45,948 nt of DNA from a virus. A model generated the notes under the pieces. The model did not search any database, was not told the DNA's origin, and saw only the letters and a list, made by a program, of their open reading frames with translations. The position numbers were made by a program, and so were the translations under genes. The stretch lies in IMG/VR virus record IMGVR_UViG_3300018083_000013, one strand, 5' to 3'. Of the stretch, positions 7,957-40,866 are shown in pieces. Each line of letters opens with the position of its first letter. The stretch's first letter is position 1.

Positions 7957-8558
7957 TGGGTTGGGTGGTCCCGGCCGTCGCGGTCGTCTCGACCGTCATC
8001 CAGGCGGTCCAGACCAAGAAGGCTGGCAACGCCGCGGCGAAGGCCGGGCTGCAGGAACAGGAAGCGCGGAACGCCGCGGGCCGTCTCTTCGACTGGAACG
8101 CGGGTGTCGCGGAACTGCAGGCGCGAGACGCTGAAGCGCGCGGCGTCATTGACGAAGCGCGGTTCCGCCAGCAGATCAGCAAGTTTATCGGCACGCAGCG
8201 CACAGTCCAGGCCGCGAGCGGAACGGATGTCAACTACGGGTCGAACGTCGATGTGCAGGCCGACACCGCGTATCTGGGCGAGCTCGACGCGCTGACGATT
8301 CGCACGAACGCGGCGCGCGAGGCGTGGGGCTACCGCGTCGAAGGCGTCGACATGAAGGCGCGGGCCGAGATTTCTCGGAAGTCCGGCGTGCAGGCTGCGG
8401 AGGCTGGCCGCGCGCAGCGTTCAGCGGCGAACTGGAGTATCGCCGGGAACATCCTCGGCACCGGCTCCTCGCTCCTCGCGGCGAAGTACGGATTCGGCAA
8501 GCAGCAGAAGACCTTCACGCCGACGCGCAACAACCTGCGTCTCGTTGCCCCCTGGTAA
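7956..8558 (+). CDS. gp14-position internal virion/ejection protein (N-terminal TM helix)
   Basis: ATG 7956 overlaps the upstream stop (TAATG). N-terminal MGWVVPAVAVVSTVIQAV. Called on synteny with the T7 core genes. Confidence 0.6.
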   Translation: MGWVVPAVAVVSTVIQAVQTKKAGNAAAKAGLQEQEARNAAGRLFDWNAGVAELQARDAEARGVIDEARFRQQISKFIGTQRTVQAASGTDVNYGSNVDVQADTAYLGELDALTIRTNAAREAWGYRVEGVDMKARAEISRKSGVQAAEAGRAQRSAANWSIAGNILGTGSSLLAAKYGFGKQQKTFTPTRNNLRLVAPW

Positions 8559-10325: not shown

Positions 10326-13300
10326 GCTACCTCTACGACGAGGAGTTCGACCAGCAACTCGGCGCGCCGCCAGCAGCACCACAAAAGCGCGACCCGTACG
10401 ACTCGTTTCTCGACTCCGTGGTCGGCACCAAGCGCGCCGAGACACAGGCCGCAGTCAAGCAGGCACCGCCGCAGGATCCAAAGAAGGCCGCGGAGATTCT
10501 GAAGTGGGCGGAACTGACGGGTCTCTCGCCGGAACTCCTCGAGCGCAACTACGACCGCGCGAAAGCTGACCTCACGTTCACGCCGGAACACGCCGGCGCG
10601 CTGATGACGGATGCGCCAGGTCTCGCGTCCTGGCTGACGCGGCAGGACCGCGTGAAGGTCGGCGCCGTCAGGCCGGAACTCCCGCAGATGATCAGCCTCG
10701 AGAAGTCCTTGCGCCAAGGCGCGGGTGCGCTCGGGGCTGGTGTCGCGGACATCGGCGCGAACTTCTGGGGCACGGTGCGCGGGCTCGCGGAAGGGCTGGA
10801 CGTGCCGACGCGAGTGGACGAGATGATCCGCTCGGTCTTCAAGGGCACGCCATTCGCGGCGATGCCTCGCGGGGTTGGCTCCTTCGATCCGACACCGAGC
10901 ACGCTGTCACAGGTCGCAGACTTCGCACGCGCCAGTCAGTACGAAGGACAAGGACTCGCGGACCAGATTCAAGGCGATGTCTCCAAGGTCGGGCCGCTCG
11001 GCCAGGCGGTGCTCGGCGGCATCCGCTCGGCCGGGCAAGTCCTGCCCACGCTCGCGCTCGGACCGGAGGCGGTGCTTGGCGCGATGGGCGTTGGCACCTT
11101 CGGGCAGGCGTACGGCGCCGGCCGCGATGAAGGCGTGGGCGTCTATCGTTCCCTCGCGTACGCCGGCGGGCAGACGGCGATCGAGATTGCGACCGAGAAA
11201 CTGCCCGTCTCATGGATTTTCCGTGACCTGAAAGAAGGCACGCCGCTCATCAAGACGCTGCTGCACCAGATGGCGTCAGAGATTCCAGGCGAACAGGTCG
11301 CCACGCTCCTGCAAGACCTGAACGATTGGGCGACCCTGCCGTCGAACCAGACGAAGACCTTCCAGGACTACCTGAACGAACGGCCGAGCGCCGCGGTGGC
11401 GACTCTCATCAGCACCGTGACCACGGTCGGCCTGATGACCTCGAGCGCGCATATCGCCATGAAGACGCTGGAGCAGGGCGGTAAAGACCTCGAGAAGTCC
11501 GAGACCGTCAAGAACCTGCCCGAAGTCGCCGTCGAGGTACTGCGCGAGGCGACGAAGGGCACGCCGCTCGAGGATGTCCACGTTGACCTGAAGACGTTCA
11601 CGGAGTTCTTCCAGTCGAAGGGCATTGACCCGGCCACGATGGCGGCGCAGATCACGGGCGATGCCACGGCCTACGCGGACGCCATCCAGACCGGCGAGGC
11701 GCTGAAGCTGCCGACCGCCGGCGTGCTCGTGCACATCGCGTCGAAGCCGGAGTTCTCGGAGTTCCTGAAGGATGTTCGCCGTGCGCCGGAGGCGATGACC
11801 TCGAGGGAAGAAGAGTCGCTGGCGAAGGAGCTCGCGTCGGTCGAGACCGCGCCAGAGGCCGACGCGACGGCACCGGTCGCCCGTCCAATCTTCGACCACG
11901 CGCAGGCGCAGTTCGTCGAAGGCGGCAAGGTCACGCCACAGGTCGCGCAGCACTACGCGGCGCTGATGGAAGCGGCGTTCACGCAACTCGCGGCCCCGCT
12001 CGGCATGAACCCGGCGGCGCTGTATCAGCGGTACGGGTTGACCGTCACCAGGGAAGTCGCGGGACGGCTCGGCCAGGCCCGCGCGCACGGACTGCTCCCG
12101 GCCGAGGGTGTGACCTCCCCTGTCACGGCCACGCCGCCGGCCGACCAGGAGTCACGGCTCCAGCGCCTCGCGGCCATCGCCAAGAACGCCCTCCGAGGCG
12201 CACGCCGGCTGGTGGGATTGCAGAATCCGGCCGCTGGTGCGACCATATCCGCTGATGGTTCCGAAGGCGCTCCCGGTGCTGGAACAGGGTCGGACGTACG
12301 CGGTGATCGTCCGCAATCTGTCGCGGCTCCTGGACGCGGGGCTGACGCTGAAGGAAGCGGCACCGATCCTCAAGTCGAAGTCCGGCCTGACGAGGCTCTA
12401 CCCGCTGCCTTCCTTGACGACTTCACCGGGATCCTCGCCGGCGCTCGCGCCCTAGGCTACACCGGCACCGACGCGGCGCTCGCCGCGCAATATGCTGACG
12501 CGATCGACTACGCGCGTGGGGTCATTCGTGATTCCGCGGCTGACGACGGCACGACGGCGCGCGACCTCCTCAAAGAGATTTCCTCGCTCGGCGGATTCGG
12601 TCTCAGCGAAGAAGGCGAGACCGGCTATCGCGGCGAGCTCACGCACCTCCTCGAGAACATCACCAAAGACACGTCGCGCCGGTCGGTGATTCGCCGCGGC
12701 AAGCGCGCGGGCCAACTGATGCCGCGCGCGGTGCAGCAGTCCGGTGGCCTGCCTGGCATTCCGCACCTGGTCGTCCGCAACGGCGGCATGACCGCCGACG
12801 ACATCCTGACGCACATCAACGCGGAAGGCTCGCCGTGGGCGGGCCAGTTCGATTCCCTCTCGGACTTCATGGAGGCGGTGGGTCAGGCGATTGCGACCGA
12901 GACCGGAATGCGAGACGAACCGCAGTCGCGCGGGCTCACAGTGCGCGGCACGCTGTCGGACCTGATGGACGTGAAGCCGGACAGCGCGTGGTGGCGCGAC
13001 ACCGCGCAGGACGACGTGGAAGACGGCGACGAGGATCCTGCGGCCCGCGACGATATGAACGCGACCGTGGCCGGTGCGACGTTGCGGCGTACCGGCAACA
13101 TGATGTGGAAGTACCTGGACGGGCAGAAAGAGGCGCCGGACAACGGCGCCGAGCGCGCCCAGATCCGGGAGGTCTTCCAGGGGATCCTCGAGCGGCTGCA
13201 GGCGGGTGGCTATCCGGACCTGACGATGTCCGATTTGCAGGCGTTGCTCTGGTATCCAGAGCGCCGGCTGTATGACATGGGAACATCTGTCAAGGACGTT

Positions 13301-16300
13301 GCGTCAGGGTATACTGATGACGAGGCACCTGACTATGCCAACGCCGCAGTCGCCCTCGCAGAAGCCGCAGGAATCGACCCAGGATCCATCCAATCAGCGC
13401 GAGCCCGAGTTACTGCCAGAATCAGCGCAGCAGGAGCAGGAAGAAGTGCTTCTGGATCGGCAACTGGAACGTCAGGCCAAGGCCAGCAAGACGCCGTAGC
13501 TCCGGCCGACTCCTACCAGCAAGTCTTCCGCCAGACGGCCCGCGCGTCTCTGCGCCTCTCGGACGATCAGATCACGCGGACGATGGTGCTGTTTCAGGAC
13601 GCGGACCTGTCGAGCGTCCTGCACGAATCGGCGCATCTGTTTCTCGACGTGTTCGCGGACATCGCGAATGAACTGATCCAAGTCGAGAACCAGACGCCGG
13701 AGCAGACGCGACAACTCTCGGACTTTCTTGAGCTCATCCGCTGGACCGGCTTCGAAGGTTCACTCGCGGAGTGGCGCGCCCTCGACACGAACGGCAAGCG
13801 GCCGTTCCACGAGAAGTTCGCGGAGGCGTTCGAATCGTATCTGCGCGACGGCAAAGCACCGAGCCCTGAACTCCGCGGCGCGTTCGCGCGGTTCCGGTCG
13901 TGGCTCCTCGCGCTCGCGAAACATCTCCGCACGACGGTGCAGTTCTCGCCGGACGTGCGGAAGGTGGTCGACCGAATGCTCGCGACGGATGCGGCTATTG
14001 AGCAGGCGGCGAATGAAGCGAACCTCGCGCCGATGTTCCTGACGCCGGAAGCGGCCGGCATGACACCGGATCGGTTCGCGCTCTACCGCGAGGCGATTGT
14101 CCGGGCGTCCGACAAAGCCCGCGAGACGCTGGAAACGCGACTCCTCGAGGACGTGCGCCGGGAGCAGACGGCCGAGTACCGCGCGCGGAAGACGGAGATT
14201 CGCGGCCAGGTCGCGGCCGAGGTCTACGCCGAGCCGGTCTATCAGGCGATCAGCGCGATGCGGAAAGGCACGACGCCGGACGGCCGGTCGCTCATCGAGG
14301 GCGAAGACGCCGTGCCGATGAAGCTCGACCGGTCCAGGCTCATCGAAGTCTACGGGCCGGACCGCGTGGCGCAACTGCCGAAAGGCATCGCGACGAATGA
14401 CGGCGGTTTGCTGGCAACCGAGATCGCGGACCTCTTTGGCTACGACTCCGGCGATGCGCTCCTGACGGCGCTCGCGCAGGCCGAGCCGATGCGACAGAAG
14501 ATCGACCGGCAGACCGAAGCGCGGATGCTGGCCGAGCACGGCTCCATGCTCCTCGACGGCACGCTCCACGAGCAGGCCAGAGCGGCGATCGTGAACGACG
14601 AGGCCGAGCAAGTGGTCCGCGAAGAACTGCGCGCCCTGCACCGGCTGCAGAAGGCGACGAAGCCCTTCGTCGCGGCCGAGGCCGCGGCACAGCAGAAAGA
14701 ACGCGACTACGAGCGCCGCTGGTTCGACGCCGAGGCCAAACTGCGCGAGGCCATGATCAAGGGCAAGGCGCAAGCGGAGATCGACGCGATTCGGCAGGAA
14801 GTCTCCGAGCTCAAGCGGAAGGCGCGTGGTGGCGCGGAAACGATTCGCGGCGCCGAGCCGTCCGTGGGATTCTTCGACGCGCTCGCGGATACCAGACTGG
14901 CGCGGACCCGCGTCAACGAACTGGCCCCGCAGAAGTTCTGGGTCGCGGCCCGGCAGGCGTCGAAGGACGCGACCGAAGCGGCGGCGCGGCAGGAACTCGA
15001 TCGCGCGGTCGCGGCCAAGCAGCGGGAACTCCTGAACCTAGCGCTGTTCCGGAAGTCGATGGAACTGCAGGACGAAGTCCGCACGCGGGCGAAGTTCGCG
15101 CGCGACCTGGCGAAGACGAAGAAGCAGGCGCAGCTTGGCCTCGCCGGCGAGGTGTTCCAGGACGGCGTGAACCAAGTCCTGGCGCGGTTCTCGTTCGCCT
15201 ACATGACGAAGCAGCAACTGGCGTCCCGGATGGCGTACCTCGAGGTCTTCGCGGACCGGGATCTGCCCACGGCGCTCCAGACGCCGCCCACGCCCTACCA
15301 GTCCCTGATGACCGAAGAGTTCATGGGCATCACGGACGGGCTGAGACAGATCGTCCACCTCGCGAGTCAGGAAAACCAATTCATCGCGGCGAGCAACAAA
15401 GGCACGCTCACCGACAAAGCCGCCGAAGGCGCGGCGTCGATTCTCAAGCACACCAAGAGCGGCCCGCCGCAAATCGAGAACACGCGCGACGACGAGAAGA
15501 AACGATTCTGGGGCGGCTTCCTCGCGCGGCACACGAAGATCAGCGAGTTCGCGCACGAGCTCGACGGGTTCGTGACCGGCGGATGGGTGTGGGAGCATGT
15601 CGTCCGTCCGTTCAACGAGCGGCAGTCGTGGGAAGACCATCGCAAGGCGAAGGAAGCCACGGCCTACCTCGACCTTCTCAAGCGGTTCTACACGCTCAGT
15701 GAGATCGCGCGGTTCAACGAGAAGACGGAAGTCCGCGGCGTGGGGAGTCTGACGAAGGAAGCGCGGATCGTCATCGCGCGGAATTGGGGCAACCAGGACG
15801 GCCGCGATCGGCTCCTCAATGACCCGGTGCTGAAGGCGCACGGCTGGACGCCGGCGCACTTTCAGGCGGTGCTCGACTCGCTCGACGGCCGCGACTGGCA
15901 GGCGGTGCAGGCGACGTGGGACTTCCTTGATTCGTTCTGGCCGGAGATTGAGGCGAAGCAGTTCCGGGTCACGGGCCTGAAGCCGAAGAAGGTGCAGGCG
16001 GTCTCGGTGGACACGCGCTTCGGCATCTTCAAGGGCGGCTACTACCCGCTCGCGTACGACAGTAGCAAGGCGCCATCGGACCAGCAGAAGAAGCTGGCGG
16101 AAGAAGCCACGCTGCGCGCGAAGGGCGGCTACGTCTCCACGACGACCGGCCGCGGCCACACCAAGGCGCGCATGGCGCATGTGCAGCTCCCGGTGCTGCT
16201 CGAGGACGTGGTCGGCCGGCACGTTGACCAGGTTGTTCACGACCTCGCGTTCCATGAAACGCTGATCGATGTCAACCGGCTCATCGGACACAAAGACATC

Positions 16301-17506
16301 CAGCAGGCCATCCTCGCGACGAAGGGCGACAAGGCGTACCGGCAGTTCACGCTGACGATCGAGGACATCGCGGTCGGCTACATGAACGTCGAGGGCGAGG
16401 AGCACCGGATCGCGTCGTTTATGAAGACCGGCGCGCAGATTGCCGGCATGGGCTACAACGCCTGGACGGCCGCGCAACAGATCACCGGCAACTCCAACAC
16501 GATCGCGCTGTTCGGCGCCGGGAACTACACGCGCGGCCTGAAGAGTATGCTCGCGCATCCGGACGGGTTCGTGAAGCGGATGCAGTGGGCGGTCGAGAGC
16601 TCACCGCTCCTGAAGACGCGCGCGACGAACATCAACCAGGACACCGCGGACCTCCACCGCACGCTCCGGAAGCACGGCTCGTGGTTCGAAAAGATGCTCC
16701 TGTCTGCGACCGGCGACCGGCTGACGCAGGACATGATCGCGAACTCGTTCTTCTGGCATATCGGCATGGCGCAGTTGTCGGCCGATTTTCCCGCGTGGTT
16801 CACCGGCTACGAGATGGCGATGGCGGATCCGGCGAATCGCGGCGACGAACAGCGCGCGTTCGCCATCGCAGACCAGGCCGTGAAGGACGCGCAGGGCACC
16901 GGCTCCATTCACGACCTCGCGGCCGTGCAGCGCGGCGGGCCGGTCATGCGGCTGTTCCTCGTGTTCTACAGCTACGGGAACCTCCTCTTCAACCAGACGC
17001 GGCGCATCACCGGCCGCACGGACCCGCGCAGCGCGACTCAGATTGCGAAGATGCTCCGCGACCTGTCGCTGGTCTACATCATCCCGTCGCTCTACACGAC
17101 GGCGCTCGCGGTCGCCATCGGGAAACTCAAGCCGGACGATTGGGAGGAGTTCTTCCTCGAGGTCGCGAAGAACAGCGTCTCGACGGCGATGAACACGATG
17201 GCGTGGGTGCGCGAAGGCGGCGCGGCCATCTCGGCGGGACTGTTTGGCGACGTGGGCGACGTGCGCGGCTACGAAGGCCCGGCCGGCACGCGGATGTTCT
17301 CGCTCCTCACGCGCGCGATCGTGCAGGTCAAGCAGGGCGAAATGGACGAGGCGGCGATCAAGGCGGTCGCGAACTTCGTCGGCACGATCCTGCATGTCCC
17401 GGCGGTCCAGATTGAACGCTCGGCGCGCGGTGTCGCGGCGATGCTCGAGGAGCAGTCGGCCAATCCGACCCCGCTGATTTTCGGACCGCCGAAGAAGGAG
17501 AACTGA
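10322..17506 (+). CDS. Giant (2394 aa) gp16-position internal virion/ejection protein, polyvalent-type
   Basis: Uninterrupted 7.2-kb ORF with an ATGA overlap upstream. HESAH (HExxH) at aa 1101-1105 (nt 13622-13636). Low-complexity Gly/Ala/Pro linker at about nt 12150-12450. Hydrophobic helices near the C-terminus (FFWHIGMAQLSADFPAWF, MRLFLVFYSYGNLLF, LSLVYIIPSLYTTALAVAIG). Confidence 0.7.
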   Translation: MSYLYDEEFDQQLGAPPAAPQKRDPYDSFLDSVVGTKRAETQAAVKQAPPQDPKKAAEILKWAELTGLSPELLERNYDRAKADLTFTPEHAGALMTDAPGLASWLTRQDRVKVGAVRPELPQMISLEKSLRQGAGALGAGVADIGANFWGTVRGLAEGLDVPTRVDEMIRSVFKGTPFAAMPRGVGSFDPTPSTLSQVADFARASQYEGQGLADQIQGDVSKVGPLGQAVLGGIRSAGQVLPTLALGPEAVLGAMGVGTFGQAYGAGRDEGVGVYRSLAYAGGQTAIEIATEKLPVSWIFRDLKEGTPLIKTLLHQMASEIPGEQVATLLQDLNDWATLPSNQTKTFQDYLNERPSAAVATLISTVTTVGLMTSSAHIAMKTLEQGGKDLEKSETVKNLPEVAVEVLREATKGTPLEDVHVDLKTFTEFFQSKGIDPATMAAQITGDATAYADAIQTGEALKLPTAGVLVHIASKPEFSEFLKDVRRAPEAMTSREEESLAKELASVETAPEADATAPVARPIFDHAQAQFVEGGKVTPQVAQHYAALMEAAFTQLAAPLGMNPAALYQRYGLTVTREVAGRLGQARAHGLLPAEGVTSPVTATPPADQESRLQRLAAIAKNALRGARRLVGLQNPAAGATISADGSEGAPGAGTGSDVRGDRPQSVAAPGRGADAEGSGTDPQVEVRPDEALPAAFLDDFTGILAGARALGYTGTDAALAAQYADAIDYARGVIRDSAADDGTTARDLLKEISSLGGFGLSEEGETGYRGELTHLLENITKDTSRRSVIRRGKRAGQLMPRAVQQSGGLPGIPHLVVRNGGMTADDILTHINAEGSPWAGQFDSLSDFMEAVGQAIATETGMRDEPQSRGLTVRGTLSDLMDVKPDSAWWRDTAQDDVEDGDEDPAARDDMNATVAGATLRRTGNMMWKYLDGQKEAPDNGAERAQIREVFQGILERLQAGGYPDLTMSDLQALLWYPERRLYDMGTSVKDVASGYTDDEAPDYANAAVALAEAAGIDPGSIQSARARVTARISAAGAGRSASGSATGTSGQGQQDAVAPADSYQQVFRQTARASLRLSDDQITRTMVLFQDADLSSVLHESAHLFLDVFADIANELIQVENQTPEQTRQLSDFLELIRWTGFEGSLAEWRALDTNGKRPFHEKFAEAFESYLRDGKAPSPELRGAFARFRSWLLALAKHLRTTVQFSPDVRKVVDRMLATDAAIEQAANEANLAPMFLTPEAAGMTPDRFALYREAIVRASDKARETLETRLLEDVRREQTAEYRARKTEIRGQVAAEVYAEPVYQAISAMRKGTTPDGRSLIEGEDAVPMKLDRSRLIEVYGPDRVAQLPKGIATNDGGLLATEIADLFGYDSGDALLTALAQAEPMRQKIDRQTEARMLAEHGSMLLDGTLHEQARAAIVNDEAEQVVREELRALHRLQKATKPFVAAEAAAQQKERDYERRWFDAEAKLREAMIKGKAQAEIDAIRQEVSELKRKARGGAETIRGAEPSVGFFDALADTRLARTRVNELAPQKFWVAARQASKDATEAAARQELDRAVAAKQRELLNLALFRKSMELQDEVRTRAKFARDLAKTKKQAQLGLAGEVFQDGVNQVLARFSFAYMTKQQLASRMAYLEVFADRDLPTALQTPPTPYQSLMTEEFMGITDGLRQIVHLASQENQFIAASNKGTLTDKAAEGAASILKHTKSGPPQIENTRDDEKKRFWGGFLARHTKISEFAHELDGFVTGGWVWEHVVRPFNERQSWEDHRKAKEATAYLDLLKRFYTLSEIARFNEKTEVRGVGSLTKEARIVIARNWGNQDGRDRLLNDPVLKAHGWTPAHFQAVLDSLDGRDWQAVQATWDFLDSFWPEIEAKQFRVTGLKPKKVQAVSVDTRFGIFKGGYYPLAYDSSKAPSDQQKKLAEEATLRAKGGYVSTTTGRGHTKARMAHVQLPVLLEDVVGRHVDQVVHDLAFHETLIDVNRLIGHKDIQQAILATKGDKAYRQFTLTIEDIAVGYMNVEGEEHRIASFMKTGAQIAGMGYNAWTAAQQITGNSNTIALFGAGNYTRGLKSMLAHPDGFVKRMQWAVESSPLLKTRATNINQDTADLHRTLRKHGSWFEKMLLSATGDRLTQDMIANSFFWHIGMAQLSADFPAWFTGYEMAMADPANRGDEQRAFAIADQAVKDAQGTGSIHDLAAVQRGGPVMRLFLVFYSYGNLLFNQTRRITGRTDPRSATQIAKMLRDLSLVYIIPSLYTTALAVAIGKLKPDDWEEFFLEVAKNSVSTAMNTMAWVREGGAAISAGLFGDVGDVRGYEGPAGTRMFSLLTRAIVQVKQGEMDEAAIKAVANFVGTILHVPAVQIERSARGVAAMLEEQSANPTPLIFGPPKKEN

Positions 17507-17853
17507 TGGCCGGGCGCAATCGCATTGTCGGCGGGCGACGGTTCGCGACGTTGGGGCACGCGCGGCGCGGGAAGGCCGCGTTCGTGAACCTCGCGCCGGC
17601 GGATGGCGCGGACGGTGTCGATGGTGATGATGGGTCGAACGGGTCTGACGGTGCGCCTGGCGCGGACGGCGCGGACGGGACACAGGTCATCGTCGCCGTC
17701 GCCGCGGGATTCGATCCGGACGACTACCCGGCTGGCACCGTGGCGTTCTTTGTGGACGACCTCGCAGAGCCGACCGCGGTGCAGTTCGGCGGCAAGAAGG
17801 GCGACGGAGACGGCGGCGGATTCCCTGAACCGTTGCCACTCGAATCAGCCTGA
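17506..17853 (+). CDS. Small collagen-like repeat protein (fibre-associated candidate)
   Basis: Nine consecutive X-Y-Gly triplets (ADGADGVDGDDGSNGSDGAPGADGADG), nt about 17599-17679. Confidence 0.6.
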   Translation: MAGRNRIVGGRRFATLGHARRGKAAFVNLAPADGADGVDGDDGSNGSDGAPGADGADGTQVIVAVAAGFDPDDYPAGTVAFFVDDLAEPTAVQFGGKKGDGDGGGFPEPLPLESA

Positions 17854-17867
17854 AAGTTGACGCGATT

Positions 17868-17877
17868 TGTAACACAT
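17868..17877 (+). promoter_or_regulatory. TGTAACACAT motif, copy 1
   Basis: Exact 10-mer in the intergenic gap upstream of the gene at 17910. TTGACG lies 5 bp upstream of it and a small hairpin (gcacg gtaaa cgtgc) follows. Confidence 0.3.
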
Positions 17878-17909
17878 CGCACGGTAAACGTGCCGGAGGA
17901 CAGAGAGTT

Positions 17910-18356
17910 ATGACACGACGATTCATTCTGCTCATCGCGCTTCTCGCAGGACTCGCCCTGCCGGCCGCAGCAAGCGCGCCGATGGTGGGCACGGTGACGT
18001 TCACCTGCCCCGGCACCTCCAAACAGGGCGGCGTCTGGAAATGTACGTGGGCGTGGACATCGGACGCCAGCGGCAACGTCTCCGGGAACACGAAGCAGTT
18101 GCCGTACGGCTACGTGATTCGCGTCGAGACGGACCCGGGCTCGACGGCCCCCACGGATAACTACGACGTGACGCTCCTCGACACGGGCGGCATTGACATC
18201 ATTCAAGGGGTCGGGGCTGACCGCGATACGGCCAACACCGAGACGACGAACTTCTCTTCCCCGCTCTGGCATGACGGATCACGGGTGGTCGACCTGACGA
18301 TCGCGAACGCGGGCAACGCCAAGGTCGGCGTGCTGACGCTGTGGATTCGCCAGTGA
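17910..18356 (+). CDS. Hypothetical protein with Sec-type signal peptide
   Basis: RBS ggagga. N-terminus MTRRFILLIALLAGLALPAAASA/P is a classic n-h-c signal with an AxA site. Confidence 0.65.
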   Translation: MTRRFILLIALLAGLALPAAASAPMVGTVTFTCPGTSKQGGVWKCTWAWTSDASGNVSGNTKQLPYGYVIRVETDPGSTAPTDNYDVTLLDTGGIDIIQGVGADRDTANTETTNFSSPLWHDGSRVVDLTIANAGNAKVGVLTLWIRQ

Positions 18357-20389
18357 AGGCGCGCATCCTCGGCCTCGTTCTTCTCCTGCTCAGTCTCGCG
18401 GCGCCGGTCGCCGCGCAGAACACGGCCACGTTCCCGCCTGGCCTTCCGCTCGGCTGCACGGACGGTCAGGGCATCCTCTACAACCTTGCGTCTCGCGCGT
18501 GGGAATGCGGCGCGGTTGGCGGGTCTGGCGCGGTCGGCACGGACACGATCTGGGACGCGGCTGGCGATCTGGTGTACGGCACTGGCGCGAACACCGCCGG
18601 TAAACTGGTCAAAGGCACAGCGGCCCAAGTTCTCCGAATGAACGCCGGCGCGACGGCCCCTGAGTGGTGGAGTGTCGCGATCACATCCGCGCTGATTACT
18701 GACGCCGAGATCATCAACGCGGACATCAGCGGGTCGGCGGCGATTTCATTTTCGAAGCTGAACATCGCGCTCGCGGATGTGCTCGGGCTCTATACCGGCA
18801 CTCCGACCGGATCGAAGTACCTCCGGGATGATGGGTCATGGCAGGCCATCGCTGGCGGTGGTGATGCGCTCGTGTCCAGCACACTCGCGCAGTTCGCGCC
18901 GACGACCTCCGCGCAACTGAAAGTCGTCCTGAGTGACGAGCTCGGGAACGCGAGCGGCAAGGCGCTGTTCGCTCTCGGGCAGATCGACATCGCGTCCGGT
19001 AAGACGGCGACGGTCTCCAACACACTGACGTTCACCGGCACTGATAGCTCGACCGTGGCGTTCGGCGCCGGCGGCACGGTGCTGTACTCCGGCGGGTCGA
19101 TCGGCACGCCGTCCGGTGGCAGCGCGGCGAACCTGACCAGTATCCCGGTGGCGAACGCGACGGGCGATCTGGCCTTCGCGAACCTGACGCAATGCGCGAC
19201 GGACACGATTCTCGCGAACACGTCCGCCGGTACCGGTGACGTGTCCTGTGTCGCCTACGCGACTCTGTTGAGTGATGCCGGGGTCGCGTCCTTCACGGAC
19301 CCAGGCGCGGACTGCGTGCTCGAGTGGGACGACTCTGGCGGCATCATCGAATGCGCGGAAGCCTCGACGGCCCTGACGCTGGTGAACCTTGTCGCTGGCG
19401 CGGTCGATTGGGGCGCGGCGACGAGTTTTGAAGTCCCGAATGCGGCGGCGCCTACGGTCGACGCCTTTGGTGAGATTGCTGGCGATAACAACCTCTGGGC
19501 GGCGAGTCGCGGCACGGCCATCTTCTTCGACGGCACGGCAGCGACGGCGTTCGTCAACGTGCTGGTGTCGGACACACCGTCGAATGGACAAGTCCCGAAG
19601 TGGAACACGGGCGGGACGATTACCTGGGAGAACGACTCCACCGGCTCGGCGCTCGGCTCAAGTCTCACGAGTTCCACGAACGACATCCTCGCGTCGACCG
19701 GCAACGACATCGTGCTCGGCAAGAGCGCAGGCGAGGCGGTGACGTTCAGCTTCGGCACGTCGAACACGATGGCGCTGTCGTCCACGACCGGCGTCGTGAC
19801 CTTCGACCACGGCGGTATGGCGATCACGAACGGGACCATTTCGCTGCCGTTCCACTACGTCTTCCAACTGGCGGGCTGTCAGAACACGACGGCCACGGTC
19901 GGGATGAACACACCGACGACACTCGGCGCGGCCGGTGCGTGCGAATCGGTTGCCGCGGCCAGCGGTGACGTGGCGTACGGCGCGGCGGTCTTCGTGACCG
20001 GTGGTGCGAACACGGAAGTCCACGGACATTTCCCGCTGCCGTCCGATTGGACCGGCGCGATCGATGTCCAGGTGAAGTGGCGTGCGGTCTCGACCACAAC
20101 GAACGATGTCGTCTATCAGATCAAGTTCGGCTGTGTCGCGACGGGCGAAGCCTCGACGGCGGTCAGCTTGAACAACACGGCATTCTCGGCGGTGACGAAT
20201 CTCGGCACGACGCTCCAGTGGAACGTCGCGACGAAGACCGGGATCACCACGACCGGATGCGCGGCCGGAGAGCAGGCGGTCTGGGTGCTTGACCGTGACA
20301 CCGACACATCTGGCGACACGCTCGACGCCGACGTGCAGGTCATGCAGGTCGATTTCACCTATCGGCGCAACGTCACGATCGGGGGCTAA
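18353..20389 (+). CDS. Tail-fibre-like protein with signal-peptide-like N-terminus
   Basis: GTG 18353 overlaps the upstream stop (GTGA); GTG 18341 is an alternative start. N-terminus VKARILGLVLLLLSLAAPVAAQ. DTIWDAAGDLVYGTGANTAGKLVKGTAAQVLRMNAGATAPEW is a common phage fibre motif. Confidence 0.65.
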   Translation: MKARILGLVLLLLSLAAPVAAQNTATFPPGLPLGCTDGQGILYNLASRAWECGAVGGSGAVGTDTIWDAAGDLVYGTGANTAGKLVKGTAAQVLRMNAGATAPEWWSVAITSALITDAEIINADISGSAAISFSKLNIALADVLGLYTGTPTGSKYLRDDGSWQAIAGGGDALVSSTLAQFAPTTSAQLKVVLSDELGNASGKALFALGQIDIASGKTATVSNTLTFTGTDSSTVAFGAGGTVLYSGGSIGTPSGGSAANLTSIPVANATGDLAFANLTQCATDTILANTSAGTGDVSCVAYATLLSDAGVASFTDPGADCVLEWDDSGGIIECAEASTALTLVNLVAGAVDWGAATSFEVPNAAAPTVDAFGEIAGDNNLWAASRGTAIFFDGTAATAFVNVLVSDTPSNGQVPKWNTGGTITWENDSTGSALGSSLTSSTNDILASTGNDIVLGKSAGEAVTFSFGTSNTMALSSTTGVVTFDHGGMAITNGTISLPFHYVFQLAGCQNTTATVGMNTPTTLGAAGACESVAAASGDVAYGAAVFVTGGANTEVHGHFPLPSDWTGAIDVQVKWRAVSTTTNDVVYQIKFGCVATGEASTAVSLNNTAFSAVTNLGTTLQWNVATKTGITTTGCAAGEQAVWVLDRDTDTSGDTLDADVQVMQVDFTYRRNVTIGG

Positions 20390-20392
20390 CCT

Positions 20393-21151
20393 GTGCGGTT
20401 GCTGATCGGCACGATCCTCGCGGCCACGCTCGCGCTCGCACCGGCCTCTGCGCCGTTTGCGGTCAGCTATAACTCATCGGCCGACCACGGGACCAACACC
20501 AGCACGTCATGGACGAAGTCGTACACGGCGCCGACGCTGACGGACGGGATGCTGGTCATCTGCATCGTGGGCGACGTGATCGGCGGAAACGACGACATTA
20601 CCGGCGTGACCTACAACGGCGTGGCCGCGACGTTGATCAGGAAGAACACGGCCGGGTCGGCCAACAACCGGTTCCTGTACATGTACGCGATCGCCGGCCC
20701 GACCAGCGGAGCACATAACTGGGTCATCACGAACACGAACAGTCACTTCCGATCCGCGACGATCGGCGCGTACGAGGGGATGTCCTCGACGTTCCCGCCG
20801 GATTCGTCGGCCGCGAACCAGAACACGACCAATACCACACTGACCTCATCGACCACGGTGGTCTCGGCGAGCTCATGGCTGGTGATGTGTGGGTCGCAGA
20901 GTTACACGGGCTCCGGGTTGACCGCAGGCACCGGGACTACCAAGCGCGTACAGGAAGCCGGGTTCCTGACGAACGCCCTCTTCGACAGTAACGGCACAGT
21001 GAGCACCGGGAGCCAGAGTTTGCAATACACCACGGGAGCCGCGACCGACAACGTCGCAATCGTGGCGTCATTCGCGCCGGCCGGTGGTGCTCCTGTGTCG
21101 CCACTGTCGGCCATGATCAACGCGATGATTCGCGGAGGAGTCGATCGATGA
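20393..21151 (+). CDS. Hypothetical protein with signal peptide (fibre-cluster)
   Basis: GTG start. N-terminus MRLLIGTILAATLALAPASA/PF. Confidence 0.6.
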   Translation: MRLLIGTILAATLALAPASAPFAVSYNSSADHGTNTSTSWTKSYTAPTLTDGMLVICIVGDVIGGNDDITGVTYNGVAATLIRKNTAGSANNRFLYMYAIAGPTSGAHNWVITNTNSHFRSATIGAYEGMSSTFPPDSSAANQNTTNTTLTSSTTVVSASSWLVMCGSQSYTGSGLTAGTGTTKRVQEAGFLTNALFDSNGTVSTGSQSLQYTTGAATDNVAIVASFAPAGGAPVSPLSAMINAMIRGGVDR

Positions 21152-22875
21152 ATCGGATTGTGATCGCGCTGATGGTCGCCACTGCGCTGCATCTTGAGCA
21201 GCAATGGCTCCCGGTGCGCGTGACGCTCGGCGGCGGGACGAACACGCTGCTAACTTCATCGTCGTTCGTTGACCTCGGCGGGTTCAAGACGCCAGCCCTC
21301 TCTGACTTGGCGTACTCCGCGATGCGCGGGATGGGCTTCGACGCGGCGGGGAACGGCGCTGCGGGGTCGATCTACACGAACGCCTTTGGCAACGCGCAGA
21401 TCGCGGAGATTTCGCTGGCGACTCCGTCGCTGTCCACGAACCAAGGCACATGGAACACCGCGACACGACTCCAGAACACCGTCAACATTCAGGCGAGCTT
21501 CTGCAACGACGTTGAGCAGATCAATGACGACACCAGGCTCGGTGGCGTCTTCGTGGTCGGGTCGCAACTAATGCTGACGTGCTACGTGGAATACTCAGGG
21601 GCGCTGATCGCGGACGGGTCGCACTTCCTGACCTCGAGCAAGACGATCGCCTCGATGACGAAGTCGGCCGGACCCGCCAACGCGGTTTCGACCCGCTACA
21701 GCACGAACCTGTCGCCAGGATTCGCGGCCGGACCGATCGTGGAAATACCGGCGCAGTGGCGGGCGTCGTTCGGCGGGCATACGCACGCCTCTGGACTCTG
21801 GAGCGCCCCGATCACGAGTCGCACGAGCCAAGGGCCGTCGATGCGTGTGTTTACCGCCTCTGACCTTGTCGGGAAGACGACAGGCCAAGGCATCACAGGC
21901 GTGGACGTGGTGGGGTACCCGCTCGGACATCCGACGCTCGGCGGTCTATATAGCGGCCAGTGCAGTTCCCTCTACAAAGGCACGAACGACATCGACGGGT
22001 GGTCGTGCGCCTCGTCGCGCGGCGGGATTATCTGGCCGACCTACGGCCGCACGGTGGTCTTCGTCAGCCGGCACGGCGACCTCGACCAGTACTGCTACGG
22101 GCTCGGCGTGACGAGCGGCGATCGTGACGGTCCGATCCCTGGCGTCGACACGTTCTGGGGTCAGGTCAGCGGGGCATCGACCTCGCTCGGTGGGACGCGG
22201 GTCACGGTCCCGAATCTGAACGTCTCTAGCATCACGACGGATGGCCGCTCGGCGGTCTATCTGAGCGGCGAGACGGTCCCTGCGAACAAGGCGTACATCA
22301 GCGCCGAGACCGGGAACCAGGACAACGGACAACGCTACGACGGTGCGGCCCCCATCATCGGCAAGGGGAACAGCGGCACGCCATCCGCGTACGTAGACGT
22401 GTCCGCGTCGAACCCGTTCAACGACGGGCTCACTGGCAAGACCGCAAACGTCGGCGAGCTCACTTGTTGGGATCCTGCCGAGACCTCGAAGGGCCAGCAC
22501 GCGCCGGCGTTGACGACGCCCAACTACCCGCTGCGGTTCTACCTCTACGACATCAACGACCTGATCTCCGTGTACGAAGGCACGCTGGAGAAGTGGGAAG
22601 TCTACCCGTATGAAATGTTCACGATTGATTTCACTGGCATCACGCGGAACGTCAGCGCGACGTACGGGCTCCCCGGCGCGGCGTTGAACCCGACGACCGT
22701 CAATACGGTCTACCTCGGCCTGAACATGACCGAGACGGCGAACCCTGAACGGGCGACGGTTCGCACGCTGCAGATCACCAATCCGGACGCGCCGAAACCA
22801 GAACCGTTGCTGCCGATTGCGGCCGGGCTCGCGGTCTGGTCTGTCGGTGGGCTCCTGCGTCGGCGCCGCGTGTAA
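21148..22875 (+). CDS. Large beta-rich protein with hydrophobic N-terminus and C-terminal PEP-CTERM sorting signal
   Basis: ATGA overlap upstream. The C-terminus PEPLLPIAAGLAVWSVGGLLRRRRV-stop (nt 22798-22872) has PEP, a hydrophobic helix and an Arg cluster at the extreme C-terminus. Confidence 0.7.
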   Translation: MNRIVIALMVATALHLEQQWLPVRVTLGGGTNTLLTSSSFVDLGGFKTPALSDLAYSAMRGMGFDAAGNGAAGSIYTNAFGNAQIAEISLATPSLSTNQGTWNTATRLQNTVNIQASFCNDVEQINDDTRLGGVFVVGSQLMLTCYVEYSGALIADGSHFLTSSKTIASMTKSAGPANAVSTRYSTNLSPGFAAGPIVEIPAQWRASFGGHTHASGLWSAPITSRTSQGPSMRVFTASDLVGKTTGQGITGVDVVGYPLGHPTLGGLYSGQCSSLYKGTNDIDGWSCASSRGGIIWPTYGRTVVFVSRHGDLDQYCYGLGVTSGDRDGPIPGVDTFWGQVSGASTSLGGTRVTVPNLNVSSITTDGRSAVYLSGETVPANKAYISAETGNQDNGQRYDGAAPIIGKGNSGTPSAYVDVSASNPFNDGLTGKTANVGELTCWDPAETSKGQHAPALTTPNYPLRFYLYDINDLISVYEGTLEKWEVYPYEMFTIDFTGITRNVSATYGLPGAALNPTTVNTVYLGLNMTETANPERATVRTLQITNPDAPKPEPLLPIAAGLAVWSVGGLLRRRRV

Positions 22876-22880
22876 CACAT
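22871..22880 (+). promoter_or_regulatory. TGTAACACAT motif, copy 2
   Basis: Exact 10-mer spanning the stop TAA of 21148..22875 and the first two bases (AT) of the ATG at 22879. Confidence 0.3.
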
Positions 22881-23214
22881 GCTAGGGTCGCTCCCGATGA
22901 GAACGATCCTTCACACGATTACTGCACTCGCGCTGACCTCCTCGATCGCCGTGTTCGCCTTGCCGTCGAACGGGCCGCAGGAGAAGCCGCCCGTCGCGTC
23001 GAAGCCTGCACTCCCGGCGATTGCTGAAGTCGATCGCCTGAAGCTCGAGAACGCGATGCTGCGCGCGCGCGCCGCGGACCAGCAGTACCGGGCTGTCCTC
23101 GCGACCAGTGAATCGCAGATCCGGGCGGTGGTGGACGCCTTCGAAGTCGCCCATCCGGGTTTCACGATCGACACGGCGAAGCTGGTCGCCGTCGCGAAGC
23201 CTCCGGCGAAATGA
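22879..23214 (+). CDS. Membrane-anchored/secreted coiled-coil protein (possible i-spanin-like lysis accessory)
   Basis: N-terminal hydrophobic TILHTITALALTSSIAVFALP followed by a helical region. It lies immediately upstream of the endolysin. Confidence 0.5.
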   Translation: MLGSLPMRTILHTITALALTSSIAVFALPSNGPQEKPPVASKPALPAIAEVDRLKLENAMLRARAADQQYRAVLATSESQIRAVVDAFEVAHPGFTIDTAKLVAVAKPPAK

Positions 23215-23672
23215 CACGCGAGCAGATCAAGGCGGCGCTGACCGATCGGGACGCGCTGATCTGCACGCTCCTCGGTGAAGCGGCCAGTGAGCCGATCGAG
23301 GGTCAGGTCGCGGTCGCGTCCGTCATCCGCCGGCGCGCGCTCAATCCTCGCTGGTGGGGCTCTGGCTACAAAGGCGTGTGTCTCAAGCCCTCGCAGTTCT
23401 CGTGCTGGTGGGAGCAGAACGGGAACACGGAGGCGGTCTACGCCTTGGCCGAGCATCTGGTCAAACGGTTGCCGCTCGGCGGCGGCGTGCTCCCGCAACT
23501 GCAGTGGATTGCGGAAGGCATCATCGGAGAGCAGATTCGCGATCGAGCCAAAGGCAGTGACCATTATTTGACCGTCGCGCTGTACGGCTCAATGAAGGCG
23601 CCGGAGTGGGCGCGGCAGGCCACGCCCGTGGTCAAGGTCGGCAGTCATCAGTTCTTCCGATTGGAGTTGTGA
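23211..23672 (+). CDS. Endolysin, SleB-type cell-wall hydrolase (Hydrolase_2-like)
   Basis: LLGEAASEPIEGQVAVASVIRRRA...CLKPSQFSCWW matches the SleB/Hydrolase_2 signature. It has no signal peptide and holin-like genes follow. Confidence 0.75.
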   Translation: MTREQIKAALTDRDALICTLLGEAASEPIEGQVAVASVIRRRALNPRWWGSGYKGVCLKPSQFSCWWEQNGNTEAVYALAEHLVKRLPLGGGVLPQLQWIAEGIIGEQIRDRAKGSDHYLTVALYGSMKAPEWARQATPVVKVGSHQFFRLEL

Positions 23673-23899
23673 TGAAAACTGTTCAGCAGACGAAGACGTT
23701 TTGGGCGAACGTACTGATGGCACTGATCGCGCTTCTCTCGGCGCCGGACGTGCTCGCGCTCATTCCGCCTGACGGCATGAAGTACGTCCCGGGATTCATG
23801 GCGGCGGTCAACATCCTCCTGCGGCGCATCACGAGCGAGCCTGTCACCTTCCTGAAGCAAGACGAATCGAAGATCGACCCCACGCAATATCTGAGTTAG
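23672..23899 (+). CDS. Holin candidate (75 aa, two hydrophobic helices)
   Basis: ATG 23672 overlaps the endolysin stop (TGATG). Helices FWANVLMALIALLSAP and YVPGFMAAVNILL. Confidence 0.55.
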   Translation: MKTVQQTKTFWANVLMALIALLSAPDVLALIPPDGMKYVPGFMAAVNILLRRITSEPVTFLKQDESKIDPTQYLS

Positions 23900-23907
23900 G
23901 AGTTCCC

Positions 23908-24279
23908 ATGAGTCTGTTGAAACGCATCGGCGTCATCTCAGCCAACATCGCCGGCATCATCGCGGGCGTCGGGCCGCTGATTCTCCCGGGCCGTCAGGGC
24001 GTCATTGATCAGGTGCTCAACGTCTTCGAAGAGTTCGCCACGGCCGTCGCGACTGTTGAGCAGATCGGCGCCGCGGTCGGGATGCCGGGGCCGGACAAGT
24101 TCAAGGCGGTGCTGCCGCTGTTCGGCCAGATTCTCGGGCGCTCTGTGCTCGTGCGGACGCACGGCATTAAGGATCAGGCGCTCTACGAGAAGGCAATCGC
24201 CGGTTACGGCCAGGCCACGGTTGACCTCTTGAACTCGCTCGATTCGAAGAAGGTCAAGACGGAAGAGCTCGCGGCCTGA
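23908..24279 (+). CDS. Holin_LLH-like / lysis-associated membrane protein
   Basis: RBS aggag. It has an N-terminal TM helix (IGVISANIAGIIAGVGPLIL) and a soluble tail with GPDKFKAVLP...LYEKAI...LLNSL, resembling the LL-H holin family. Confidence 0.45.
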   Translation: MSLLKRIGVISANIAGIIAGVGPLILPGRQGVIDQVLNVFEEFATAVATVEQIGAAVGMPGPDKFKAVLPLFGQILGRSVLVRTHGIKDQALYEKAIAGYGQATVDLLNSLDSKKVKTEELAA

Positions 24280-24524
24280 GTCCCATTCTGTCGTCCCACG
24301 CTGTAACTCGCTGACAATAGGCACGTTACAGATATACCTGCGGCCTTCTAAGCCGAGGGTCGCAGGTTCGAGACCTGCCAGGCGCGCCAATGTTTACGGG
24401 CTTGTTTTGACGTTTCGGCCTTTTTTCTGACGCGATCGGGACGACGGCCTGGACTTCTTCGGTGCCGAAAAGTCCAGCAAAGTCCCACTAGGCTCCGCGT
24501 CGGTAGTCCCAATCGGTAGTCCCA
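24279..24524 (+). other. attP region: tRNA-derived core flanked by five same-orientation (A)GTCCCA arm-type repeats and a 7-bp inverted repeat
   Basis: GTCCCA copies at 24280, 24293, 24482, 24506 and 24519. The last two sit in the tandem tcggtagtccca repeat (24500-24511 and 24513-24524). Inverted repeat ctgtaac (24301-07) / gttacag (24325-31). Confidence 0.6.
24341..24389 (+). other. 3' portion of a tRNA-Arg(TCT) (anticodon stem to CCA), not a complete tRNA; probable attP identity segment
   Basis: Anticodon stem cggc/gccg with loop cTTCTaa (anticodon TCT). Variable loop gggtc, T-arm gcagg-ttcgaga-cctgc, acceptor 3' strand caggcgc, discriminator g, then cca. No matching 5' acceptor strand or D-arm lies upstream. 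It ends 4 nt from the integrase stop. Confidence 0.75.
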
Positions 24525-25614
24525 CGGTCTCCATGTAGGCGTCCAGCTTCGTGAAGGCGTCCCGGACGCGCGGGTCCACGCTCGACTGCGTGTACCTCGC
24601 GGTCGTCTCGATGTTGCCGTGCTGCAGGGCGAACTGCGCCGCCCGGTCGTCCTTGGACGCCTCACCAAGCGCGGCCGCAAAGGTATGCCGGAGGTCGTGC
24701 ACACGCACGGGCGGGAACCCTGCGCGCTCGGCGGCCGTGTTGAAGGATTTCCAGACCGAGGATCCGGAGAACGGCCCGTAGAGGTTGTGCCGGTCGAAGT
24801 CCCTGAACGCCTCGATCGCCGGCCTGGTCAACGGCGTCAGGACCGGGTCTGCCCCGCTCCCCTTGAACCGCTCGGTCAGCCAGAGCGTGCCGGCCTCGAG
24901 GTTCAGGTGTTCGGGCTCAACGCGCATCAGTTGCCCCTCGCAGATTTGGCTGTAGCCCATGCACCGCAGACGAATCTTCGTCTTCGAGACCTCCGGGCGG
25001 GTGTCGCCTTTCTTCTCGGCCCGGCCGCGGTCCTCCATCGCCGCCAGGATGGCGACGAACGTCTGGTACGGGATGGCGCGGCCCTGCGGGTCGCCCTTGG
25101 GCTCGTCCAGTTCTTCGACCTCGCGCACGGGGTTGCTGCTGCCATTCGGGTCCAGGCGCCGCCAGACGTTCGACAGCGCCCGGAGCATGTTGTTCGCGGT
25201 GCTGACGGCGTACGGGCGCGGGTCGGTGGCGCTCCGCGGCTCGGTCGTCAGCCGCAGGTACACATCCTCAATGTCGTTCTTGTCGATGTCGGTGCGCTGG
25301 CGTGTCGCGCCGAGCTTCTCGACCCAGAAGGCGAGATGCCGTTCGCGCTCGTGGAACGTCGGCATCGCCTTGACCTTCTCGAGCTTCATGTAGCGGGCCA
25401 CGTCGAAGCCGAGCGCGCCCTTGGTCGCCCTGGCCTCGCGGGTGACGTGGAGTTCGGCGGCGGTCTTCCGGCGCCACGCCTGCATCACGCGCGGGTCGGT
25501 GCCTTTCGGAAAGTGTTTCCGGATCGCTGGACGGCCGCGGCCCTGCGTGACTTTCGCGCGATGGCCGCGGCCGTGGTCTTCGATCCCGATCAAGAGTGGC
25601 GATCGTCGCGGCAC
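24394..25614 (-). CDS. int: Tyrosine integrase
   Basis: 406 aa. HDLRHTFAAAL...LQHGNIETTARYTQ is the catalytic R-H-R-Y box. It is adjacent to the tRNA-like attP. Confidence 0.9.
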   Translation of the reverse strand: MPRRSPLLIGIEDHGRGHRAKVTQGRGRPAIRKHFPKGTDPRVMQAWRRKTAAELHVTREARATKGALGFDVARYMKLEKVKAMPTFHERERHLAFWVEKLGATRQRTDIDKNDIEDVYLRLTTEPRSATDPRPYAVSTANNMLRALSNVWRRLDPNGSSNPVREVEELDEPKGDPQGRAIPYQTFVAILAAMEDRGRAEKKGDTRPEVSKTKIRLRCMGYSQICEGQLMRVEPEHLNLEAGTLWLTERFKGSGADPVLTPLTRPAIEAFRDFDRHNLYGPFSGSSVWKSFNTAAERAGFPPVRVHDLRHTFAAALGEASKDDRAAQFALQHGNIETTARYTQSSVDPRVRDAFTKLDAYMETVGLPIGTTDAEPSGTLLDFSAPKKSRPSSRSRQKKGRNVKTSP

Positions 25615-37867: not shown

Positions 37868-38040
37868 GCCAAGCGAAACGCACCGCGCCACCAGCGTGTC
37901 CACTCTGCGCTCTCGCAACGAACGTGAGTCTGCTTGCGGACGAAGATGCGGCGTTCATGGCCGTGTGGGAATGCTCTCGCTGCGGGATCAAGTTCGATGA
38001 GTATGGCCGCACCGGATCGAAGGCTGGTGGTCCGCGATGA
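37864..38040 (+). CDS. Small zinc-ribbon-like protein (58 aa)
   Basis: ATGA coupling. Contains CPLC...CSRC. Confidence 0.45.
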   Translation: MSQAKRTAPPACPLCALATNVSLLADEDAAFMAVWECSRCGIKFDEYGRTGSKAGGPR

Positions 38041-40847: not shown

Positions 40848-40852
40848 CACAT
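40843..40852 (+). promoter_or_regulatory. TGTAACACAT motif, copy 3
   Basis: Exact 10-mer spanning the stop TAA of 39141..40847, 15 nt before the TerS start. Confidence 0.3.
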
Positions 40853-40866
40853 GGCAGGGTGTTCCC

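Follow-up and report, generated by a model that had tools for sequence, protein, structure and literature searches.

The window analyzed here is the whole 45,948-nucleotide (nt) stretch of IMG/VR virus record IMGVR_UViG_3300018083_000013, in which five consecutive genes, designated A to E, occupy the position where a podovirus would carry its tail fibre genes. Four of these genes, A to D, encode proteins with Sec-type, signal-peptide-like N-termini. Our preferred explanation, which is tentative and may well be wrong, is that the region from 17.5 to 22.9 kb is a receptor-binding module whose fibre parts reach the periplasm by export, mature there, and are added to the virions at lysis. The initial annotation of this region had offered two alternatives, namely the export of a set of envelope-associated proteins or the co-option of their hydrophobic termini for virion assembly. 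We suggest, with the same caution, that the two can be combined, in that the exported proteins would still form the receptor-binding module. Tailed phages are taught to assemble entirely in the cytoplasm, and both host-range prediction and phage engineering build on this view. If a large group of uncultured phages does export fibre-type proteins, either the virions are completed outside the cytoplasm or about one-tenth of the genome is spent on secreted fibre-like proteins, and both would be new.

Predicted export signals and conservation of the cluster

The observed gene order places the cluster after the T7_gp14-family, gp15-like and gp16-like genes and before the lysis genes. The four translationally coupled genes A to D encode ~1,650 amino acids (aa) in total and make up ~11% of the genome; the rest of the 45.8-kb circular genome yielded no further fibre candidate. 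The initial annotation had described five proteins with signal-like N-termini, and the open reading frames (ORFs) and N-termini are exactly as described there; A to D can be retained as Sec-type proteins, but E is better described as an anchor protein of the lysis cassette. The signal calls were made with our own heuristic based on hydrophobicity and charge, which was run on all plus-strand ORFs. The heuristic flagged 7 of the 43 ORFs, and 5 of these 7 are the consecutive genes A to E; outside these genes, it flagged only a lysis-cassette membrane protein and the lipobox ORF of positions 38037-38318. With a background of 2/38, the estimated probability of finding five in a row by chance is ~1e-5.

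According to this heuristic, A, B and C each begin with a basic n-region, which is followed by 13-17 uncharged residues that form the h-region; positions -3/-1 are occupied by small residues, and Pro is found at -5/-6. In D, the h-region is short (~11 aa), only the n- and h-region pattern is present, and no clean site for cleavage can be recognized. For E, which is not counted with A to D, the N-terminus is an anchor of 20 residues. The hydrophobic N-termini are expected to be translated because GGAGGA is present upstream of A, the start of B overlaps the stop of A (GTGA), and C and D overlap at ATGA. The 678-aa gene call for B agrees with the ENA gene models. In the B orthologues, the AxA-Q site and the cysteines C35 and C52 are invariant, and the cysteine counts of the four proteins are even (2 in A, 10 in B, 2 in C and 6 in D), with none in the ejected core proteins. 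Real export is the most economical prediction from these N-termini. Export of A by the twin-arginine translocation (Tat) pathway, as might be read from its TRRF motif, was rejected, since its h-region is strongly hydrophobic and the other three proteins, B, C and D, have no RR.

A 17-nt motif, GTAACACAWNNNASGGT, is found only at gene boundaries (Table 1): one copy is located before A, one between D and E, one before the terminase block, and one before the portal block. A degenerate form of the motif precedes the A homologue in the related phage L003. This motif is probably a late promoter or regulatory site, and A to D are grouped with the late functions because it is common to the lysis, terminase and portal blocks. 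The GC content of the cluster and its GC content at third codon positions (GC3) are equal to those of the genome. The possibility that these genes are recent morons was rejected on the grounds of their coupled start and stop codons and of a composition and GC3 that do not depart from those of the genome. The roles in lysogenic conversion or superinfection exclusion that had been considered for the cluster are unlikely in view of the coupled genes, the genome-like composition, and the boundary motif held in common with the lysis and terminase/portal blocks.

The cluster was compared with the corresponding loci of related phages (L003/L004, L030, L031 and L032; 64-66% GC). The gene order common to these phages is gp14, gp15, gp16, a collagen-like protein, a homologue of A, a homologue of B, and 2-3 further proteins. 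Every protein after the collagen-like one has a signal-like N-terminus, up to E, and a homologue of E and the endolysin close the run wherever the locus reaches far enough. In the present genome the collagen-like protein, designated col115, matches Pfam Collagen at 22.8 bits, which is under the gathering score, and gives weak PHROG tail-fibre matches. Its counterparts of ~105 aa are found at the same position in L003, L030, L031 and L032, with MAGRNRIVGGRRF at the N-terminus and FGGKKGDGGGGGFP at the C-terminus, and col115 is a candidate for a virion-bound stub.

The collagen-like protein, A, E and the N-terminal ~105 aa of B are conserved to a degree similar to gp14, gp16 and tail tube protein B. 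Between the related phages, exchange affects the remainder of B, with its middle and tip, and the genes that lie downstream. Virion-anchored receptor-binding modules usually show this combination of a conserved proximal part and an exchangeable distal part, and the cluster has the position, the backbone-linked proximal part, the exchangeable distal part and the glycan-binding type of tip that are expected of such a module. In its position, its conserved proximal and mosaic distal parts, its fibre repeats and its beta-sandwich tip, the cluster is similar to T7-like and BPP-1-like fibre modules such as T7 gp17 and the fibre of Caulobacter phage SR18. In contrast to T7 gp17-type fibres, which have hydrophilic tail-docking N-domains and are assembled in the cytoplasm, all of the proteins here except col115 have predicted signal peptides. 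The protein that SR18 encodes at the same position is an ordinary 458-aa fibre with a hydrophilic N-terminus (LSINTTTRKAGPF).

This arrangement recurs more widely: about 20 contigs of uncultured viruses contain 2-6 such signal-bearing genes of fibre type in a row. The gene that contains the conserved module of B (described below) lies within a run of 2-6 consecutive signal-like genes in most of 15 IMG/VR loci, and the same holds for a 46-kb contig with 39% GC. The runs are preceded by non-signal genes of structural type, and they were observed in IMG/VR and metagenome contigs that range from 39 to 65% GC.

Domains and families of proteins A to D

Protein B is a four-part mosaic that consists of a Cys-loop N-domain, repeats, a module of ~75 aa, and a C-terminal beta-sandwich. 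The Cys-loop N-domain is common to close relatives, and the repeats are also present in fibre-type proteins with ordinary, non-hydrophobic N-termini. A total of 407 homologues of B were found. Of 120 that were listed, ~86% have a signal-like N-terminus, and the complete homologues without a signal among these 120 are mostly also without the 75-aa module.

The module of B (TSFEVPNAAAPTVDAFGEIAGDNNLWAASRG...NTGGTITWE) is hyper-conserved across source DNA of widely differing composition (Table 1); coordinates are also listed for L007 (9944-11803). It is absent from Pfam and PHROGs, and when 50,697 GenBank phage records were searched by tblastn with A, B, C, D and the B module, none of the queries gave a match. 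In the species-representative genomes of GTDB, the module was found at only 7 loci, all in metagenome-assembled genomes (MAGs), of which 5 belong to bacteria of the candidate phyla radiation (CPR), and none of the 7 loci is a prophage of the present type. One Saccharibacteria MAG contains three tandem copies of the module in a chromosomal 2067-aa protein, whose neighbours, as judged from their N-terminal sequences, are putative housekeeping genes of the murB, secA, obg and gatB types. The module is almost confined to signal-bearing proteins and chromosomal CPR surface proteins.

The tip of B was modelled with AlphaFold2 (AF2) at a high predicted local distance difference test (pLDDT) score. 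Foldseek matched this model, with E values of ~1e-4, to carbohydrate-binding modules (CBM6/16/22), the ephrin-receptor ligand-binding domain and the PM2 spike, and, also at ~1e-4, to the C-domains of Klebsiella phage tailspikes and a Klebsiella phage tail fibre. When the model of the whole B protein was compared with BFVD, the best matches were viral fibre or collagen-like proteins. The tip is 60-84% identical in three further sequences (P0010, P0011 and P0012) and is predicted to be CBM-like. Sequence searches of the PDB with B, D and the D-family profile gave nothing useful. No Pfam or PHROG fibre match was obtained for any of A to D, and the N-domain of T7 tail fibres (Phage_T7_tail) was not found in them.

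Protein A has a conserved cysteine pair (C33 and C45) and is 57-64% identical in four related phages, which is similar to the backbone proteins; it has no match in Pfam, PHROG or NCBIfam, nor in the GenBank phage records. Protein C likewise has no family match in Pfam, PHROG or NCBIfam. C ends with INAMIRGGVDR (21086-21148), a weak form of the tag [IV][IV]Nxx[IVL]RGGG. This tag was observed at the end of otherwise dissimilar, small, signal-bearing cluster proteins in four related phages (Table 1), and it may be a docking or sorting peptide.

The ~400-aa core of protein D (21148-22797) belongs to a family with at least 3,299 representative clusters at 50% identity, 1,466 of them at E<=1e-30. 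The family was found by an exhaustive profile search; a word-indexed database search gave fewer matches. Signal-like N-termini are present in 104 of the top 149 members, and members bear Dockerin_1, Por_Secre_tail of the type IX secretion system (T9SS), Beta_helix or Big_7 domains. There is neither a Pfam model nor a solved relative for the D core. The family is extracellular, uncharacterised and not phage-specific. Two large uncharacterised families are defined by this analysis, one by the 75-aa module, which is found in phage fibre-type proteins and CPR surface proteins, and the other by the D core. The AF2 model of D is poor (pLDDT 45.5, from an alignment of 6 sequences), and Foldseek gave only weak beta-propeller matches, GH62 enzymes and sialidases among them, with a best E value of 7.6e-3. 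On this model D is probably a beta-propeller, which is a hint of a glycan-active role. The initial annotation had pointed to depolymerase folds as a possibility for this protein; the Foldseek search that it called for returned these propeller matches but no evidence of a depolymerase.

Proposed assembly route and rival explanations

If the cluster is an exported receptor-binding module, col115 alone would stay in the cytoplasm, where fibre-less particles with a col115 stub would be built. A, B, C and D would be made late with their Sec-type signals and exported across the inner membrane. B would be the mosaic fibre homologue with a carbohydrate-binding type of tip, C would be a small accessory protein with a C-terminal tag, and D would remain on the periplasmic side of the inner membrane, tethered by its PxP motif, transmembrane (TM) segment and Arg-rich tail. 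The exported parts would fold in the oxidising periplasm, where the conserved cysteine pairs could form disulfides. Holin lesions and lysis would then mix the two compartments, and the soluble exported parts could dock on the tail. Export is favoured by the n-h-c organization of the N-termini of A to C, the invariant AxA-Q site and cysteines, the even cysteine counts, the dockerin- and T9SS-bearing kin of D, the signal-like N-termini throughout the clusters of five related phages, and the near confinement of the module of B to signal-bearing proteins and CPR surface proteins. A role in receptor binding is favoured by the position of the cluster, its mosaicism, the repeats shared with non-signal fibres, the CBM-like tip, and the fibre matches in BFVD. 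If true, this two-compartment route would be undescribed for any tailed phage, and we consider that there is a substantial chance of a new assembly route. With rather more reserve, we also suggest that widespread uncultured tailed phages may export their receptor-binding proteins via Sec, with two-compartment assembly, and that the ~75-aa module may be the signature of these phages.

Exported proteins are encoded beside receptor-binding or lysis genes in a number of phages, as is the case for Lom and Bor of lambda, Llp of T5, Cor of T1 and phi80, and the spanins. These proteins have Sec or lipoprotein signals, and signals are also predicted for the proteins of the cluster; E resembles an i-spanin. 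However, Lom, Bor, Llp and Cor are single small proteins, often self-regulated morons, whereas A to D are four large, coupled proteins of fibre type. Filamentous phages provide a precedent for virion proteins with signal peptides, pIII and pVIII, that are assembled outside the cytoplasm. In contrast to the filamentous phages, which are extruded through the envelope, the phage analyzed here is tailed and has a cytoplasmic capsid, a terminase, and a holin-endolysin cassette.

A number of points weigh against the proposed route. To our knowledge, no tailed phage exports its fibres, and a literature search of full texts also found none, with no description of signal-bearing tail fibres or of a PEP-CTERM cargo in a phage. 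D is anchored in the membrane by its C-terminus, so that its release together with the virion would require cleavage. The signal calls for A to D rest on the heuristic, and the signal regions of the A and B orthologues show no clear drop in conservation relative to the mature parts. In A and C, a Pro residue is located at +1, directly after the obvious ASA site, which makes cleavage at this site improbable and requires the assumption of another one, two residues upstream. In addition, both tail tube proteins bear LamG domains that could bind a receptor without a fibre. These domains match Laminin_G_3, a concanavalin-like lectin family, at aa 70-204 of tail tube protein A (28.1 bits) and at aa 125-265 of tail tube protein B (42.8 bits), both above the gathering score, and the tail itself may therefore bind glycans.

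The LamG domains are also the basis of the main rival explanation, which we regard as tentative but credible. Here A to D would be exported without ever becoming part of the virion; they would act late on the envelope of the infected cell, and the virion would bind through the LamG domains of the tail tube proteins, perhaps with col115. Possible roles of the exported proteins would be the binding or cutting of surface or periplasmic glycans for release, or the masking of receptors to avoid the loss of progeny on debris. This explanation is consistent with the absence of LamG from SR18, which has short versions of both tail tube proteins, with the origin of the membrane-anchored D in a non-phage extracellular family, and with the direct adjacency of the cluster to the lysis cassette. 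Phage-encoded exported proteins beside receptor-binding genes are well established, with T5 Llp and lambda Lom as examples. The rival explanation is less consistent with the related phages L003 and L030, in which tail tube protein B is only 751 and 755 aa long, respectively, without room for an extra LamG domain, and in which the signal-bearing cluster is nevertheless kept. The conserved-proximal and mosaic-distal pattern and the repeats common to true fibres are the behaviour of virion-anchored receptor-binding proteins, and the cluster, with its large share of the genome, is the sole coding capacity of fibre type. A survey of prophage carbohydrate-active enzymes (CAZymes), from which structural proteins were excluded, found signal peptides in ~5% of them (PMC13507307), which is a further point for a role at the envelope.

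It is also conceivable, though we think it improbable, that the hydrophobic N-termini are structural peptides, serving as a tail plug or inserting into the host membrane at infection, and that the proteins stay cytoplasmic. This would keep the normal cytoplasmic route of assembly, and it would fit both the Pro after the ASA site in A and C and the first 20 residues, whose conservation in close relatives is about equal to that of the mature parts. Yet the N-termini show every element of a signal, namely a basic n-region, an h-region of 10-15 residues, small residues at -3/-1 and a Pro at -5/-6, and this layout is kept in ~86% of the 120 listed, highly diverse B homologues despite widely differing N-terminal sequences. 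Homologous domains are moreover found in dockerin- or T9SS-tagged proteins and in cellular surface proteins. Hydrophobic N-termini of this type are normally captured by the signal recognition particle or by Sec, which also argues against proteins that remain in the cytoplasm.

The remaining rival concerns D, which the initial annotation had described as ending in a canonical PEP-CTERM signal. In this explanation, D would be a genuine PEP-CTERM cargo of a host exosortase, and the host would be an exopolysaccharide-producing, exosortase-bearing bacterium; we consider this to have little likelihood. The tail of D reads KPEP-LLPIAAGLAVWSVGGLL-RRRRV, and it has the right length and layout, since PEP, 17 hydrophobic residues and RRRR are located at the extreme C-terminus of a protein with a hydrophobic N-terminus. 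Such a tripartite tail combined with an N-terminal export signal is similar to the organization of PEP-CTERM, MYXO-CTERM and GlyGly-CTERM proteins. PxP is also found immediately ahead of the hydrophobic segment in P0002, a D homologue that is 70% identical, and in the positional analogues of D in L031 and L032, and P0006 ends with LEP, a hydrophobic stretch and RRR. However, the tail of D fails the PEP-CTERM models. The hidden Markov models (HMMs) TIGR02595 (NCBIfam) and PF07589 (Pfam) gave no match to D at E<=1, and they gave no match to the isolated 31-36-aa tail at E<=10, although the HMMER filters can hide very weak matches. The best match of the tail was to TIGR03382, of MYXO-CTERM type, with 15.3-15.8 bits against a cut-off of 15.85; this near-threshold match spans only model positions 9-27, that is, the TM segment and RRR, without the Gly-Cys motif, and the tail does not qualify as a MYXO-CTERM signal. 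The tail of P0002 scored 15.7 against 20 with the MYXO-CTERM-type models (TIGR03382 / TIGR03901), and no curated sorting model matched the positional analogues of D.

The PEP motif itself also differs among the relatives, in which the Glu residue is not conserved. P0002 ends with PPPLPW, a helix and RR, and the positional analogues have PMPT (L031) and PDPF (L032), in both cases with a helix and then an Arg-rich tail, so that the relatives read PLP, PMP and PDP. In D, the PEP lies in a Pro-rich linker where a chance occurrence is possible, and a C-terminal TM segment with a basic tail is present in only 2 of the top 149 members of the D family. The PxP, TM and Arg-rich anchor is thus a conserved positional feature of the phage lineage, and PEP is not. 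The inference of an exosortase-bearing host is unjustified because the PEP-CTERM HMMs are negative and the PEP is not conserved, and it falls together with the PEP-CTERM label. A PEP-hydrophobic-RRRR tail that is recognized by eye is not equivalent to a PEP-CTERM domain, and the mis-annotation is corrected here.

Phage type, lysis cassette and further features

The window is a complete circular genome of ~45.8 kb, because its ends overlap by 123 bp (1-123 / 45826-45948) and the same genome is found in other samples as assemblies of 45.8-46.0 kb that are mutually circularly permuted. By gene content it is assigned to an uncultured temperate podovirus of T7/BPP-1 type. The podovirus assignment and the position of the cluster at the fibre site, both proposed in the initial annotation, were borne out by the T7/BPP-1-type capsid, portal, tail tube, gp14 and gp16-like proteins and by the presence of the SR18 fibre at the same site. 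The closest cultured relatives are distant, and consist of the Caulobacter Rauchvirus phages and Bordetella phage BPP-1, with ~31-34% identity in tail tube protein B. The coordinates of the features are listed in Table 1.

Table 1. Features of the window and of related loci, with coordinates in nt of the window unless a related locus is named.
Feature	Coordinates	Strand	Remarks
Major head protein	1625-2638		
Tail tube protein A	3468-4769	+	PHROG tail match; extra N-terminal Laminin_G_3
Tail tube protein B	4751-7597	+	PHROG tail match; extra N-terminal Laminin_G_3
T7_gp14-family protein	7872-8558		
gp15-like protein	8562-10325		
gp16-like core protein	10322-17506		2394 aa
col115, collagen-like	17506..17853	+	115 aa; no signal peptide; 8 G-X-Y triplets; directly after the gp16-like gene
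Protein A	17910..18356	+	148 aa; starts MTRRFILLIALLAGLALPAAASA; predicted Sec-type N-terminus aa 1-23, nt 17910-17978
Protein B	18353..20389	+	678 aa; starts at GTG 18353, MKARILGLVLLLLSLAAPVAAQ; predicted signal peptide aa 1-21, nt 18353-18415
Hyper-conserved module of B	aa 351-428, nt 19403..19636	+	75-80 aa; 70-85% identity, source DNA 32-65% GC
B tip, C-terminal beta-sandwich	aa 494-678, nt 19832..20386	+	AF2 pLDDT ~90 or higher
Protein C	20393..21151	+	252 aa; starts MRLLIGTILAATLALAPASA; predicted signal peptide aa 1-20
Protein D	21148..22875	+	575 aa; starts MNRIVIALMVATAL; hydrophobic N-terminus, ~400-aa core, C-terminal anchor
D C-terminal tail	22798..22872	+	PEP (22798-22806), 17 hydrophobic residues, RRRRV
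Protein E	22897..23214	+	105 aa; starts MRTILHTITALALTSSIAVFALP; N-terminal anchor, Pro-rich linker, coiled coil
Lysis cassette: endolysin, Hydrolase_2	23211-23672	+	Pfam 1.3e-12; PHROG endolysin
Lysis cassette: holin-like protein	23672-23899	+	75 aa; weak PHROG holin match
Lysis cassette: membrane protein	23908-24279	+	123 aa
Integrase	24394-25614	-	
Large terminase	41243-42742		
Portal	43647-45356		
Boundary motif GTAACACAWNNNASGGT, 17 nt	17869-17885, 22872-22888, 40844-40860, 43226-43242	+	4 copies vs 0.3 expected
Tag-bearing counterparts in related phages	L003 12289-13062; L030 13277-14470; L031 11905-13199; L032 5915-6727		

Protein E has the layout of an i-spanin, with an N-terminal TM anchor and a coiled coil (judged by eye) and a position in the lysis cassette, and in L003, L031 and L032 its conserved counterpart immediately precedes the endolysin. 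On these features E is classified as i-spanin-like and assigned to the lysis cassette instead of the fibre cluster. No lipobox ORF that could serve as its o-spanin partner was found in E or adjoining it; the sole lipobox ORF is 15 kb away.

The 3' part of a tRNA-Arg-like sequence with a CCA end adjoins the integrase gene (24340-24392) and is likely the phage attachment site, attP. ARAGORN found no intact tRNA, and an Rfam scan of 17-26 kb gave no match. No integrated copy was found in the GTDB genomes or in two metagenome scans, for which the queries were p123 and the E alignment.

The gp16-like core protein contains a sub-threshold LPD22 'polyvalent protein' domain, and its homologues in related phages bear an ART-PolyVal domain of ADP-ribosyltransferase type, which suggests that this protein has an ejected effector function. 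A 568-aa protein (39141-40847) with a basic amphipathic C-terminal tail is encoded immediately upstream of the large terminase and has no Pfam or PHROG match. The lipobox ORF (LLTAC), which encodes 93 aa and is located just upstream of the packaging genes, could be the o-spanin partner for E or an exclusion lipoprotein.

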